A stretch of DNA of 64,000 nt, from positions 231,452 through 295,451 of the forward strand of contig CAWENF010000021.1 in the NCBI GenBank assembly GCA_963810275.1. The letters run 5' to 3'. Under the pieces are notes generated by a model. The model was not told the DNA's origin and searched no databases. It saw nothing but the letters and a program-made list of their open reading frames with translations. Source of the DNA: an uncultured archaeon. GTDB lineage: Archaea; Thermoproteota; Bathyarchaeia; Bathyarchaeales; Bathycorpusculaceae. Positions 2,875 through 63,122 of the stretch are shown in pieces. How positions within the stretch are numbered: the first letter of the stretch is position 1; each line of letters starts with the position of its first letter. The position numbers and the translations under genes are program-made.

Positions 2875-3090
2875 CCCTAAACGACTTTACTAATAGCTGA
2901 CCTAAGTTTGTAAATTATAATTTTATCAGAAACATCCTTCCTTTAAAGGGTGTAGATATTCCAAAGTACAAGAAAGCTAAGGCTAAAAAGAATATAACTA
3001 GTGACAGCAGCACCATTAAACTAGAGCATACCAATGATTCTAACATTCAACTAGAAAAGGAAAAATTGAAGCTTAAATTAAGTTTTGAAG

Positions 3091-3165
3091 CGGGTCGTAA
3101 GGGATTTGAACCCTTGACTTCCAGCTTAGAAGGCTGGCGCTCTATCCGTGCTGAGCTAACAACCC
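3091..3165 (-). tRNA. tRNA-Arg(UCU), no intron, CCA not encoded
   Basis: Reverse complement folds as a cloverleaf: acceptor GGGTTGT/ACGACCC, anticodon arm CCAGC-CTTCTAA-GCTGG, T-loop GGTTCAAATCC. Confidence 0.95.
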
Positions 3166-58127: not shown

Positions 58128-59077
58128 CTTTAATCACAGGTTGATTATGCTAAACTTCTCATATGAATGTCTGTGACTACAAACTAGACACAACAGTTCA
58201 ATAGAGGAAAATGGAATCATCGGAGTTATGGTTTTTTTGTCTCTTTGTGTGGGTGTGTTGCCTTTTGCTCTCCACACCACACTCTGGGTTGTGTGTTTGG
58301 TTGCTTTTTTGTTTTGGGCTGTTATCCTGTTGCGGTTTTAGTGTGGGAAGTTGTCTTTGCCCACACTGCCTATGTTGGAAGTATGTTGAGATGTGTGGAA
58401 AAGAGTGTGGGAGTATGTTGGACTTTGGGTTTCTTTTTCGATTCTGATATCAATTGCATATGATGGTGTAGTGTGTGGGTGGGATTTGATGCTTAAAGGG
58501 TGGCGGCAGGCGTTTGGAGATTAATTATTTTTCTCTCTAACGGTTCTGATGGTTTGATGTACATATTCTTCTTTCGTAAAAAAGCGAAACCCCAAGAACT
58601 AATAGAATAGGATAGAAAACCAGCAGAAGAGAGGCGTAGTGGTGGACTAAACTTTTGGCTCGCATTGCTTCTTGTTGGAAGCGCTATGTTTGGTATCGCT
58701 CAGATTCTTGGCATACGTCTTTTCTTTTTTCTAGAGGAGCAGTTTTTCAGGTTTGATTCTTCTTTTGATTTCCATCTCTGGTCAATGCCGCTATTTCGAG
58801 TTTTTTCAGTAGGTAGTGTGTGTTCAGTTATGGCACTTTTTATGTGGCGAAAAATAATATGCCTTTTTGCGGTAGCCTGATTGATAATAGTCTGGCAGGT
58901 GGTGTTCTGACTTTAGTGTTATAATTAATTGTGTTCCGGTGGGTATCCTCGGTATATTGTTGAGTACCGAATGGTAGCTTATTTTGAAATTAAATGCTCT
59001 TAAAAGAGTAGTTTAGACTTTAATGTCTCTGAAAAGTACTTTTATTTACGTTTCCACGTACTTAGGTATCTCGCATA

Positions 59078-59956: not shown

Positions 59957-60701
59957 TATGGAGACGCTTCGTGATATTGGCACTGTTGTTTGGGTTGATT
60001 TGCGATTTCTGCGCCGAAACTTGGGCAAGACGATGGCTCTTACCCTTATCGCTCCTGTACTGTATCTGTTGGCGTTTGGTTACGGGTTAGGCAGAGGCAC
60101 AATTATCGAGGGCTACACCTACCTTGACTTTGTAGTTCCTGGAATTATAGCGTTAACTGCGATGACAACTGCTTTTAACACTTCAGGCCTCAAACTGCAT
60201 GTGGACCGCTTGTTCTACAAATGTTTCGACGAGACCTTGATGGCGCCAGTAAGTGCTTTTTCGATAATTGTAGGCAAAGCCATAATCGGCGTTGTACGGG
60301 GATTACTCAGTTCAGCCGCACTGCTTGCTGTTGCCTTGCTTTTTTCGCCCCTACCCGCTATGAATATGCTTTTTCCGTTAAGTCTCGTTTTAACCTGTTT
60401 TGTTTTCTCCTTCTTAGGTGTCACTGTTGCTTTTTTAGCTAAAACCCATCAGGACATGACTCTTTTTATGAGTTTAGTGATTTTGCCTATGTCTTTTCTA
60501 AGCGGTACATTCTTTTCTTTAAACCAGATTCCAGCAGCATTAAGTATCGCCTTATACTTGTCACCTCTAACGCATGCGTGCATGTGTCTGCGGGCCTCTG
60601 CGCTTGGGCAAGGTTTCCCATGGTTTTCTCTTTTGGTTCTGTTGGCATTTGGGGCGGTATTTTTTGCTCCTTTGTTTTGTTGCTCTAAAAAAAGCGCGTA
60701 A
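59946..60701 (+). CDS. ABC-2 type permease (possible frameshift in the last codons)
   Basis: YLDFVVPGI, PMSFLSGTFF, PLTH; the alternative frame ends FVALKKARK at 60705. Confidence 0.88.
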   Translation: MMNNMETLRDIGTVVWVDLRFLRRNLGKTMALTLIAPVLYLLAFGYGLGRGTIIEGYTYLDFVVPGIIALTAMTTAFNTSGLKLHVDRLFYKCFDETLMAPVSAFSIIVGKAIIGVVRGLLSSAALLAVALLFSPLPAMNMLFPLSLVLTCFVFSFLGVTVAFLAKTHQDMTLFMSLVILPMSFLSGTFFSLNQIPAALSIALYLSPLTHACMCLRASALGQGFPWFSLLVLLAFGAVFFAPLFCCSKKSA

Positions 60702-60971
60702 ATAGGTTAAGGCAGTGTGCGGTAATGGACTTGACCCCTCGGCCTCTTGGAGTAAGTCAGCGTTAAGTTTGAAAAGCTCTCTACCGAACCTTCCCTTCAA
60801 CGATGGTTTGGTCACTTTAAAAAGTCGTCACTATAGTTTTCTGCGGTTTTCTTTTCTCTTTGTGTCGTTTATGTTGGCGTGTGGCAACTCGGTTTTGTTG
60901 TATTGTTGTACTGTTTTTTGGTTTTTATTGAAAAATGATAGTTTTATAAGCCCACTGGTTGAGCAAACAAA

Positions 60972-61448
60972 TTGGTTGTAGAATTGACTGACCGTAAGAG
61001 GTGGAGCAGCGATGAGGAAACAGAGCTTAAGGCGCTCTTGGAATCTGACGTTAAGGTCGAGGAGATAGCTAATAGGTTACACAAGACGGTCAGCGCCGTT
61101 ATAGTTAAGTGCCAGCGTCTTGGGTTGCAGTTACCCACTGAAGGTTATTTGTGCAATGCAATTCCTTTGCCCAGGGATTTGCCCAGCATAGAGGAGGCGG
61201 GAAGGTTGCTCGCGGGTGCTATGAAAGCCTCTGCTAAAGCTGGATTGAACCGGCTTGAAGTTCAACGCTTAACGGCTGTGGCTACCATTACTAAAACCTA
61301 CAAAGAACTCATCGTTGATTACGCTGGCTATCGTGAGTTAGAGCGCAAAGTAGAGAAGGTTGAGAGAGAAAATGTGCAGATGCGAGAGGAACTCAAGAAG
61401 ATTGAGCAAAGAAGCTCGAGCGCTCCGTCCGAACCTGCTAAAAGCTAA
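60972..61448 (+). CDS. Myb/GcrA-like HTH protein with C-terminal coiled coil; putative terminase small subunit
   Basis: WSSDEETELKALL...EEIANRLHKTVSAVIVKCQRLGL, helical core, coiled-coil tail; overlaps the terminase gene. Confidence 0.7.
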   Translation: MVVELTDRKRWSSDEETELKALLESDVKVEEIANRLHKTVSAVIVKCQRLGLQLPTEGYLCNAIPLPRDLPSIEEAGRLLAGAMKASAKAGLNRLEVQRLTAVATITKTYKELIVDYAGYRELERKVEKVERENVQMREELKKIEQRSSSAPSEPAKS

Positions 61449-62844
61449 GTGGCGTGAGGTCGAGCGGGAAAACAATGAGCTTAAGGCTGAGATTGCTCAG
61501 CGGATGCAGCATTTAACTCTGGACACAGGGTTATTTTTTGAGCAAGTCCTAGGTTTTAAGCCTCACAATTACCAAAAAGACTTCATAGATCTATTTGAGA
61601 ATAACCAGTTCACTGCGGCGCGTTGGTGTCGGCAGAGCGGTAAGACGTATATGATTTCTGCTTTGCTGCTAAAGTATGCGATCACTAATCCTAACATCTC
61701 AATCGGCGTGGTTGGACCGTCTTGGCGGCAGACCAAACGGATCATAGCGCGAATCGCAACCTTCACATATAACCTTCCAGCCGGCATGGTGTTTAAGCCC
61801 CAGAAGACGGCGATTCACTTTGCCAACGGAAGCAGCATCGAGGCGTTTCCCAACAACCCCGACACTATCCGTGGCCCTTCGCTCCATGTGGTATATGCGG
61901 ATGAGCTGAACTTCGTTGCTAACGACCAGGAACTCTATGATGCCATCCTCTATACGTTGGGCACCACCGATGGCAAATTCGTCTGCAGCAGCACACCTTG
62001 GCATACTGATAGTCTCTTTTACAAGATCTTTAACCACAAGAACTATCGTAACTTCAAAACTTCTCATGTCACATACCATCAGGCTCTGTATCCTAATGGA
62101 CCGCTAAAATCCAACATAATCGAGCAGATAAAAATCCAGATGGGTGATGACCCCTCGCGTTGGCAGCGGGAAATGATGGCGGATTGGGCTGAGGATGAAG
62201 ACGTTTGGTTACCACAGAGCCTAATCGCCTCCTGCATTGGCACTAGTAAAAACTGCGGCCAAGACCTGAAACTGTTTAATTCCAATGAAAAATATAATGG
62301 TGACTTCTACGTCGGTTTAGACCCTGCGCAAACAAGGGATTATAATGTGTTATCAGTTCTTGAGTTGGTTGATGATAAGCTTTTTTTGAGGCATTTGAAT
62401 ATTTTTCAACATCCCACCTATGACGCCTTTGTTTTGGCTTACATCAAAGTTTTGCAGGACCGTTGGGGTGGTTTCCAAAAAATTCGAGTGGACATAACTC
62501 GAGAAGGCCCAAGCTTTATTGCAGACATGGAGAAAGCTGGGATAGAGAATGCGGAAGGAGTTAACTTTAGTGTACCCCGCAAAAACGAAATGGCTAGTTT
62601 GCTAAAGAAGCGTATGCAGGATCAGCGGTTTTTTTACCCAATGATGACTTGGGAAAAGCCCTATAGGAGCGATATCTGCAACGAGCTAAACGTAGAACGG
62701 TTTGCACTACGTGCAGACAGCAACTACTCATTCAATCATCCCTCAGGGACACATGACGACGTTTTCTGGAGCATAGCATTAGCAGTATACGCAACAGCTG
62801 ACATGGAACCAGAACCCTACCTAACACTGGTTCCTATGAACTGA
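61360..62844 (+). CDS. Terminase large subunit (ATPase plus RNase H-like nuclease)
   Basis: PHNYQ, Walker A RQSGKT, IRGPSL.VVYADE Walker B, SSTP, nuclease VGLDPAQTRD and HDDVFWSIALA; start uncertain (61360-61402). Confidence 0.92.
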   Translation: MREKMCRCERNSRRLSKEARALRPNLLKAKWREVERENNELKAEIAQRMQHLTLDTGLFFEQVLGFKPHNYQKDFIDLFENNQFTAARWCRQSGKTYMISALLLKYAITNPNISIGVVGPSWRQTKRIIARIATFTYNLPAGMVFKPQKTAIHFANGSSIEAFPNNPDTIRGPSLHVVYADELNFVANDQELYDAILYTLGTTDGKFVCSSTPWHTDSLFYKIFNHKNYRNFKTSHVTYHQALYPNGPLKSNIIEQIKIQMGDDPSRWQREMMADWAEDEDVWLPQSLIASCIGTSKNCGQDLKLFNSNEKYNGDFYVGLDPAQTRDYNVLSVLELVDDKLFLRHLNIFQHPTYDAFVLAYIKVLQDRWGGFQKIRVDITREGPSFIADMEKAGIENAEGVNFSVPRKNEMASLLKKRMQDQRFFYPMMTWEKPYRSDICNELNVERFALRADSNYSFNHPSGTHDDVFWSIALAVYATADMEPEPYLTLVPMN

Positions 62845-62936
62845 CGGAAGTTTCAGGTAGTGTCCTCCAAAGGATTTATCAATATAATCTCTTTTTGTGA
62901 AAGCGTTTAATACAATCCAAAACGAAATAGTCGTTT

Positions 62937-63122
62937 ATGTCCGAATCGAAAACTTGCCCTAAATGCAACGGTTCAATGAAAAAGTCTAATGATCTATCCG
63001 CAATAGTTACAGTTACCAAAGGAATCAAAGGGTACAGCTTAAACACGAGAAGGTTTATTCCAGCCAGAACATTCACTTGCCAGGAATGCGGATACATAGA
63101 ATTATACTACGACACAGGCTAA
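62937..63122 (+). CDS. Small zinc-ribbon protein
   Basis: CPKCNG...CQECGYIELY. Confidence 0.75.
   Translation: MSESKTCPKCNGSMKKSNDLSAIVTVTKGIKGYSLNTRRFIPARTFTCQECGYIELYYDTG

Follow-up and report, generated by a model that had tools for sequence, protein, structure and literature searches.

A stand-alone terS-like and TerL gene pair in a Bathyarchaeia genome as a candidate exapted viral terminase module

The subject of this report is a pair of overlapping genes, for a small terS-like protein and a large terminase subunit (TerL), near the end of a 64,000-nt stretch of DNA from an uncultured archaeon of the Bathyarchaeia. The whole stretch is called the window (G000:C21:231452-295451, on contig C21 of genome G000); its last base is also that of the 295,451-nt contig, and positions given without a contig name are counted within the window. 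The pair was read as a member of an old lineage of the genus, that is, as a stand-alone, exapted viral terminase module that would be kept by selection and would not be a decaying provirus (rough probability 0.55). Trees, flanks and substitution rates show an old cassette lineage of viral origin that stands alone, is passed on mostly vertically and is under purifying selection, each cassette consisting of a putative private promoter, the terS-like gene and TerL. A reading of the window made from its letters alone (the sequence-only reading) had already proposed a self-standing or domesticated module instead of a provirus, and this proposal gained support: lone pairs form a monophyletic clade, keep to the same chromosomal sites across species, co-diverge with a host gene at ratios of nonsynonymous to synonymous substitution (dN/dS) of 0.05-0.11 and have a putative private promoter in common. 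The features of the cassette are as follows.

60890..60971, plus strand: putative promoter and upstream block of the cassette, with TTGTTGTAC at 60903-60911, the TATA-like TTTTATAAG at 60942-60950 and GAGCAAACAA at 60961-60970
60972..61448, plus strand: candidate terS-like small subunit, with an N-terminal GcrA/Myb-like helix-turn-helix (HTH) domain and then a long C-terminal helix
61360..62844, plus strand: TerL, with ATPase and probable RNase H-like nuclease, motifs intact, and with Pfam and PHROG matches; alternative ATG at 61372
62845..62886, no strand: right boundary of the cassette; likeness to other cassettes stops at the TerL stop codon

Two overlapping genes

The small open reading frame (ORF; 60972-61448, 158 aa from its longest TTG start) overlaps that of TerL (61360-62844, 494 aa) by 89 nt, and alignment with relatives points to the TTG at 60984 as its likely start, which gives 154 aa. 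That the two genes are an intact, overlapping pair, as first read from the letters, was confirmed by the ORFs, by Pfam and PHROG matches and by motifs. TerL matched Pfam Terminase_6N (PF03237; E 9.6e-17, 61.8 bits, cut-off 22), and its match to Terminase_6C (PF17289) came to 19.2 bits, under the cut-off of 22.6; some TerL homologs do carry PF17289. Eight TerL PHROGs were matched as well, the best being phrog_2 'terminase large subunit' (E 2.6e-38, residues 60-477). The motifs RQSGKT, VVYADE, SSTPW, GLD and HDDVFW are intact and align with those of viral copies; we take the first two to be Walker A and Walker B and SSTPW to be the coupling motif. Residues D321, D378 and D466/D467 are invariant in 38 TerL sequences. 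At 93 columns that are invariant across 25 sequences the window TerL has three private changes (K347N, G360A, G454S), and the other rows have 0-4, apart from one row with 14.

A search of 5.8 billion proteins returned 1417 TerL relatives at E<=1e-10, the best of them 76-79% identical. In their sources the homologs go under 'phage FluMu gp28-like protein' or 'terminase family protein [Candidatus Bathyarchaeota archaeon]'. A few homologs of 573-645 aa (P0066, P0083, P0084) contain intein/Hint domains.

For the small protein only sub-threshold matches (GcrA/Myb-like HTH, IF2_N, bZIP coiled-coil) and phrog_323 'transcriptional regulator' were obtained. Its AlphaFold model (pLDDT 77; helices at 9-46, 69-83 and 90-145) has a three-helix HTH at the N-terminus and ends in a helix of 55 residues, and the HTH resembles the GcrA DNA-binding domain 5yiu (Foldseek probability 0.99, TM 0.82; profile E 2.3e-5). 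The predicted complex of TerL and the small protein scored ipSAE 0.36, where the best of three controls had 0.00, and was rated as weak support. In all 24 loci first examined, and in IMG/VR contigs too, a homolog of the small gene immediately precedes TerL and overlaps it; the protein would thus be terS-like by position and predicted architecture, not by homology.

The sequence-only reading had seen no virion gene, integrase or attachment repeat near the pair, and targeted searches of the window agreed. Homologs of the relatives' virion proteins were absent (tblastn), as was a PF00589 integrase, the nearest one lying outside at C21:227315-227782. There was no tRNA beside the cassette (the only tRNA of the window is at 3090-3165) and no direct or inverted repeat above chance size bracketing the pair.

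Viral relatives and the clade of lone pairs

Counting of copies, proposed in the sequence-only reading, showed that TerL is not single copy: seven matches were found in the same genome, three of them full length without stops, and matches were present in 30 of 41 related genomes (up to nine per genome) and in 44 of 60 other genomes of the genus at E<=1e-40. Flanks of up to 10 kb on each side, less at contig ends, were fetched for 20 copies plus the loci of G000.

A viral-type operon was present in five of the first 24 loci: L028, L030 (G014), L038, L046 (G005) and L043 (G040). It is headed by an HK97 capsid gene (PF05065/phrog_267) and a gene for a scaffold/cement-like protein. Its order continues with tail genes, a 137 aa gene, an 80 aa gene, terS, TerL and an ABC-like ATPase gene, which places terS and TerL at the 3' end of the operon. 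Annotations within it include a tail tube (PF18906, 1.9e-16), a Neck1/HK97-gp10-like protein (phrog_5) and tail proteins. No portal was recognised there by Pfam or PHROG, the 411-414 aa and 462 aa proteins being without a match. All eight viral contigs that the window TerL retrieved from IMG/VR (51-57% identity) show the same order. The ABC/SMC-like P-loop ATPase (470-517 aa; phrog_293, phrog_11143) always follows TerL in L028, L030, L043, L046 and L085-L091, and occupies the place where a portal might be expected.

In a tree of 35 TerL rows, a clade of 11 rows (the S clade; support 100/98) held only copies without an operon; with 15 more loci it grew to 23 rows from 17 genomes (SH-aLRT 99). 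This clade branches inside a TerL radiation whose other members sit in head-tail structural operons. No virion homolog was found in the fetched flanks of the 23 S-clade pairs. Of these copies 20 are full length; a stop interrupts L112 and L118, and L037 is frameshifted at its C-terminus. The C-terminal tail MxPEP[FY]LxV[IV]PR is common to S-clade and viral TerLs; in other phages the C-terminal tail of TerL binds the portal. Lone pairs also occur outside the S clade (L029, L044, L040/L041, L045), where they nest among viral copies and look like more recent leftovers.

Neighbours of the S-clade pairs include DDE transposases, PQQ propellers, a TIR membrane protein, a STAND-like ATPase, PIN toxins, a peroxidase, chemotaxis genes, GNAT proteins and metabolic genes, and no conserved new partner gene was found beside the pairs in the fetched flanks. 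PIN/VapC genes follow TerL in L108 and in one group of loci with a common site (class II, below), and a STAND-like AAA_16 ATPase lies near L034; the TIR, PIN and STAND neighbours are possible defence-island settings.

Fixed sites, descent and selection

Eight members of the S clade, in eight species, adjoin a GHMP kinase and/or a UbiD decarboxylase gene (Pfam) and form a monophyletic group (class I; support 88). Both flanking genes lie within 4.2 kb in G014, 90 bp separate the TerL stop and the kinase in G049, and terS is 340-420 bp from UbiD in G054, G021 and G053. Class II comprises four species with exosortase and PIN flanks (support 97), and class III two species (support 99). Where both are resolved, the trees of UbiD and of class I TerL are congruent. 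On the UbiD tree G000 is sister to G014, and its class I site is empty: an unrelated 808 bp spacer (C14:81549-82356) stands against 4247 bp in G014, with no cassette remnant. The comparison with empty sites that the sequence-only reading had suggested was therefore clean for class I (G000 vs G014); for the window site it yielded no clean filled/empty pair among the relatives examined.

For class I TerL, dN was 0.10-0.15, dS 1.06-2.7 and dN/dS 0.05-0.11, and for class I terS dN/dS was 0.12-0.20, values that are rough with dS near saturation. The flanking UbiD gave dN 0.07-0.12 and dS 1.16-1.70 in the same species pairs. The phylogeny and dN/dS that had been proposed as checks on a decaying provirus thus returned a separate S clade and low ratios, the latter measured on class I copies.

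The sister of the window copy is the copy at G049:C112 (L108; 79% aa identity, support 100), and the two together are sister to class I (98).

Sequences of tRNA genes were seen at a few loci. An 18-nt perfect match to the T-arm/acceptor of tRNA-Arg lies 50-90 bp past the TerL stop in L033, with L037 similar by eye, and L032 has a complete tRNA-Gly about 190 bp ahead of its terS. Such sequences, which are not general among the loci, may be what is left of old attachment sites.

The upstream block

The block upstream of the window pair aligns with that of four class I syntenic relatives (L027, L033, L035, L037), and upstream likeness among cassettes ends about 110 bp before the start codon. Its order is TTGTTGTAC, about 30 nt, TTTTATAAG and the start codon, and the archaeal TATA-to-start spacing argues for a promoter. 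The 12-mer TGTTGTAC[AT][GT]TT has three matches in the genome, with promoter geometry at the window one only. A regulon was considered and rejected, as no other promoter of the genome carries the upstream motif. No RNA run was found to contain the stretch, a result that counts neither for nor against the cassette.

Points against a module kept by selection

Several results weigh against the reading of the window pair as a stand-alone module under selection. The window TerL ends in PMN and not in PR, and its terminal branch is the longest in the 35-row tree (0.37). It has no syntenic partner and its flanks differ from those of its sister L108; because of this difference the window/L108 branch appears to have moved at least once, the window copy then being a paralogous branch now at its own site. 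The dN/dS values come from class I copies and, with dS near saturation, are rough; selection on the window copy is something we infer from the clade, because the copy lacks a syntenic partner and has a long branch and an odd tail. Inheritance is not purely vertical either. At one chromosomal site in G010 (L035) and G022 (L037), dS was 1.18 for TerL, 0.31 for terS and 0.38 for a host gene, which suggests that the TerL allele was replaced by recombination beside an unchanged terS. The small protein matched no TerS family of Pfam at E<=0.1 and no solved TerS in the PDB (Foldseek, none at E<=0.001; the profile search gave only GcrA/Myb HTH). Contig C21 stops 1.1 kb past TerL, and the right-hand neighbourhood is visible only that far. 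Packaging in trans, the role put forward below, is purely what we infer, the cassette being tied to no pac site or helper virus.

A possible role

The stand-alone module would, on its intact motifs, be kept as a working ATP-driven DNA translocase-nuclease guided by its HTH subunit. Action in trans on the procapsids of an infecting or resident related virus is the role ranked first, tentatively, because all packaging motifs and the C-terminal tail common with viral TerLs are retained. The small subunit would recognise a chromosomal site and TerL would cut there; TerL would then dock on foreign portals and fill the heads with host DNA. As an outcome, virus yield would be lowered and host DNA spread, the cassette acting as a packaging decoy or hijacker with an output like that of lateral transduction. 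It is a more doubtful proposal that these are Bathyarchaeia host genes, a family of captured terminases that, when a related tailed virus infects, fill its heads with host DNA from their own site and so serve both as an antiviral decoy and as on-demand gene transfer without capsid genes of the host. If true, this would be a virus-derived host system of a previously undescribed kind.

Genomes with pairs and without a capsid match

Four genomes that carry S-clade pairs (G054, G010, G021 and G053; 99, 92, 95 and 92% complete) had 0 matches to a viral capsid protein, to PF05065 or to PF18906, in searches that were each positive in the control genome G014. A resident, dispersed gene transfer agent (GTA) is unlikely as a general explanation because these four genomes carry the pairs with no capsid or tail-tube match. 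The capsid cluster of G000 itself, described below, has at least 7 frameshifts, and the packaging arm of a GTA, one of the roles offered by the sequence-only reading, is accordingly disfavoured.

Persistence of the pairs in these genomes could also mean that the cassette has become a neofunctionalised cellular enzyme that works with no capsid at all, for instance a nuclease used in defence or a motor for repairing or segregating DNA. Such an enzyme would fit the vertical inheritance, with rates like those of housekeeping genes, and also the TIR, PIN and STAND-like neighbours in variable islands. We consider it unlikely nonetheless: the clade was not seen to have lost or gained motifs of its own, the C-terminal tail of viral TerLs is kept and no conserved new partner gene has joined the pair.

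Other copies and an apparently decaying viral cluster in the same genome

Apart from the window copy, G000 has a full-length TerL copy at C2:130711-132153 with 69% aa identity to it. A further TerL, 98% identical to the C2 copy, lies on the 13.2 kb contig C6, with the terS-TerL pairs of C6 and C2 at 96-98% aa. C6 and C2:128765-136742 have about 8 kb in common at 95% nt, and C6 probably holds a strain variant of the C2 copy that entered the same assembly, not a second copy. A split viral-type terS-TerL pair at C2:91960-93894 (TerL match C2:91978-93430) is 78-81% nt identical to L028 and L030, and a C-terminal TerL fragment stands at the very end of contig C27 (C27:87234-87574). The small gene and TerL are the only genes that the window locus has in common with the other loci of its genome. 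A gene for a TIR-domain membrane protein (PF13676, 2e-10; C2:129949-130674, L002 739-1464) is convergent to the C2 copy.

A capsid search of the genome, also proposed in the sequence-only reading, was positive on another contig. At C2:~142900-155963 (L105) there is a viral-type cluster without terS-TerL, the proteins of which are 80-90% identical to those of L028/L030: a scaffold/cement-like protein, an HK97 capsid, a tail tube, a Neck1-like protein, tail proteins and an ABC-like ATPase. It holds the sole PF05065 capsid match of the genome. No portal match was found in the genome with PF04860, and PF06074 gave none even in control genomes. The loss of the pair from this cluster is a clean 1869 bp. 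It begins with the terS ATG, which forms ATGA together with the stop codon of the 80 aa gene, and reaches up to the ATGA where the ATPase begins; as a result, the 80 aa gene of G000 overlaps the ATPase gene by its stop codon. The split pair lies about 50 kb from this terminase-less cluster and keeps about 65-100 bp of its old upstream gene. Against G014, at least 7 uncompensated 1-nt insertions were counted over 7.5 kb of the cluster, compared with roughly 3 such indels, counted by eye in well-aligned parts, in 17 kb of host flank. The cluster thus looks like a decaying one.

Such decay is one ground for viewing the window pair as a neutral relic, the last piece of a decayed head-tail provirus that is intact by chance. 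Besides the C2 cluster, the split pair and the C27 end fragment, and the lone viral-type pairs nested among viral copies (L029, L044, L040/L041, L045), show the family breaking down; the window copy has a long branch; and NitKor-E1, the sole published case found, is taken for a likely relic in the accessible part of its description (PMC6563490). A relic would not, however, be expected to form a clade of 23 copies with 20 intact, to keep the same site in up to 8 species, to co-diverge with the host at dN/dS 0.05-0.11 or to have a common promoter. At about 1 indel/kb, the density of the C2 cluster, a 1.9 kb cassette should carry about 2 frameshifts. These expectations make a relic rather improbable.

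The sequence-only reading had stressed that the pair is intact while many accessory genes are frameshifted. This keeps some weight, but the assembly also has single-base insertions in housekeeping genes. At C14:84334, 78190 and 76003 single-base indels break housekeeping genes that are otherwise 90%+ conserved; these are either assembly errors or real pseudogenes, and frameshifts of this assembly need care.

Edges of the cassette and mobility

The two genes might instead move themselves, by cut-and-paste or in a homing-like way, as an autonomous minimal mobile unit. The sharp bounds of the cassette would fit, as would its clean absence from the viral cluster of the same genome with ATGA at both joints, the viral-type copy about 50 kb off with so little of its old upstream flank, the different sites of the window copy and its sister, and the several sites per genome. 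Terminal inverted repeats were not found, the best arms being 12-21 nt with 76-93% complementarity and none at the cassette ends, and there was no target-site duplication, flank alignments having no shared ends beyond the promoter block. Near-identical copies are missing as well: the best is 69% aa within the genome (the C6 variant aside) and 76-79% in the database, so that copies are old, and inheritance is mostly vertical. No joint that skips the cassette was found in four DNA runs (metagenomes), a weak point in that contigs were short and uncovered parts uninformative. The minimal mobile unit suggested in the sequence-only reading is for these reasons improbable.

Least probable is a complete provirus or element that continues past the contig end, for although the contig stops 1.1 kb beyond TerL and the Zn-ribbon and nitroreductase genes found there are not syntenic with anything in relatives, the structural genes of the viral relatives all lie upstream of terS, where the window has an ABC transporter, the other 22 S-clade loci have no virion genes on either side, and the contig end is not a repeat within the assembly.

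A mis-joined contig, raised in the sequence-only reading as a way in which it could be wrong, is unlikely because both cassette junctions are bridged in independent public runs. Short contigs from runs of different studies cross the left junction (X2, 60699-61027; X3, 60617-60863) and the right junction (X1, 62695-62989; X2, 62709-62917); among the runs there may be one made from the very sample that was assembled.

Relation to known systems

To our knowledge, terminase is treated as a hallmark of tailed viruses and their direct derivatives only. Phage satellites (the SaPI/PICI small terminase, capsid-forming PICIs) are terminase-encoding and mobile, with an integrase, att sites and replication/regulatory modules. 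The window pair resembles them as a chromosomal element with terminase subunits that could redirect helper capsids, and differs in having no integrase (PF00589) and no bracketing repeats. With the Terminase_6 family (T4/Mu gp28-like) it shares a Terminase_6N match above the cut-off and homologs named gp28-like, whereas its genomic context is non-viral.

Head-tail viruses of Bathyarchaeia have been published as Fuxivirus and Kunpengvirus (10.1101/2023.08.24.554615), and a 46.8 kb head-tail provirus is described as 'common in Bathyarchaeia' (PMC11697101), both as far as the accessible text of these sources goes. Comparison with Bathyarchaeia Caudoviricetes was made on the viral-type loci and the eight IMG/VR contigs, not on those published genomes. 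These viruses have a TerL 51-65% identical to that of the window, the same small upstream gene, the motifs and the C-terminal tail, but in them capsid, tail and downstream ABC-like ATPase genes form one operon with the pair; the window pair lacks all three and is preceded by a putative promoter of its own.

GTAs such as RcGTA keep the whole head-tail set, with virus-derived packaging genes, vertical inheritance and purifying selection (PMC8987985, consulted in part). Vertical inheritance under purifying selection is what was seen for class I copies; unlike GTAs, the lineage keeps the terminase alone, and four carrier genomes are without capsid and tail-tube matches. In that review of recruited mobile-element genes terminase is mentioned 0 times.

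The closest precedent is NitKor-E1 of Ca. Nitrosopumilus koreensis AR1 (Krupovic et al. 2019, PMC6563490), in which, according to the accessible part of the paper, the sole tailed-virus genes are TerS directly upstream of TerL. The same part states that terminase was unseen in non-viral elements and that the role of the NitKor-E1 terminase is enigmatic, the genes being a likely relic. The likeness lies in an archaeal integrated region with a TerS-TerL pair as its only viral genes. The two were compared by description only: NitKor-E1 is described as a single element with a tyrosine integrase, VapBC and a restriction enzyme, whereas the window lineage has no integrase and comprises 23 copies in 17 genomes, with conserved sites, host co-divergence and purifying selection. 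Literature on stand-alone or domesticated terminases was otherwise not found in a search of main texts, supplements (a possible home of Bathyarchaeia provirus tables) lying outside it; the accessible parts of the Bathyarchaeia virus and metagenome-assembled genome literature hold complete tailed viruses and the provirus only, with no lone terminases. The lone-terminase lineage would be a new variation on the domestication of viral genes, with the one precedent found.

Such a lineage makes TerL alone an unsafe provirus marker in archaeal genomes and extends the list of viral parts kept by cells. It offers a concrete candidate for DNA exchange, or for the blunting of tailed viruses, in uncultured sediment archaea. 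The precise loss of terS-TerL from a viral operon and the apparent swap of a TerL allele beside an unchanged terS are natural experiments on terminase specificity.

Surroundings of the pair

An ABC ATPase gene and an ABC-2 permease gene lie upstream of the pair and Zn-ribbon and nitroreductase genes downstream (Pfam); the separately conserved Zn-ribbon unit starts at about 62887-62894. The flanks had been taken for ordinary host genes, a description that fits only loosely. Orthologs of the ABC pair are 77-87% identical in 12 relatives, and of these orthologs in 29 fetched loci 0 had the cassette, the Zn-ribbon or the nitroreductase within 1.5 kb; the wider flanks of the ABC pair are rearranged in 8 relatives. 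The Zn-ribbon and nitroreductase genes match separate places in relatives, never together. Because the ABC pair, the Zn-ribbon and the nitroreductase each have different neighbourhoods in relatives, the end of C21 appears to be a patchwork region.

Between a small gene and the ABC operon there is a stretch of about 0.8 kb (58200-59000) with strong strand asymmetry (GC skew 0.23, AT skew -0.29) that holds short overlapping ORFs only. Near the window start, a tRNA-Arg gene (3090-3165) and a tyrosine integrase gene (C21:227315-227782) lie about 7 kb apart and may mark an integrated element, unrelated to the cassette 57 kb off.

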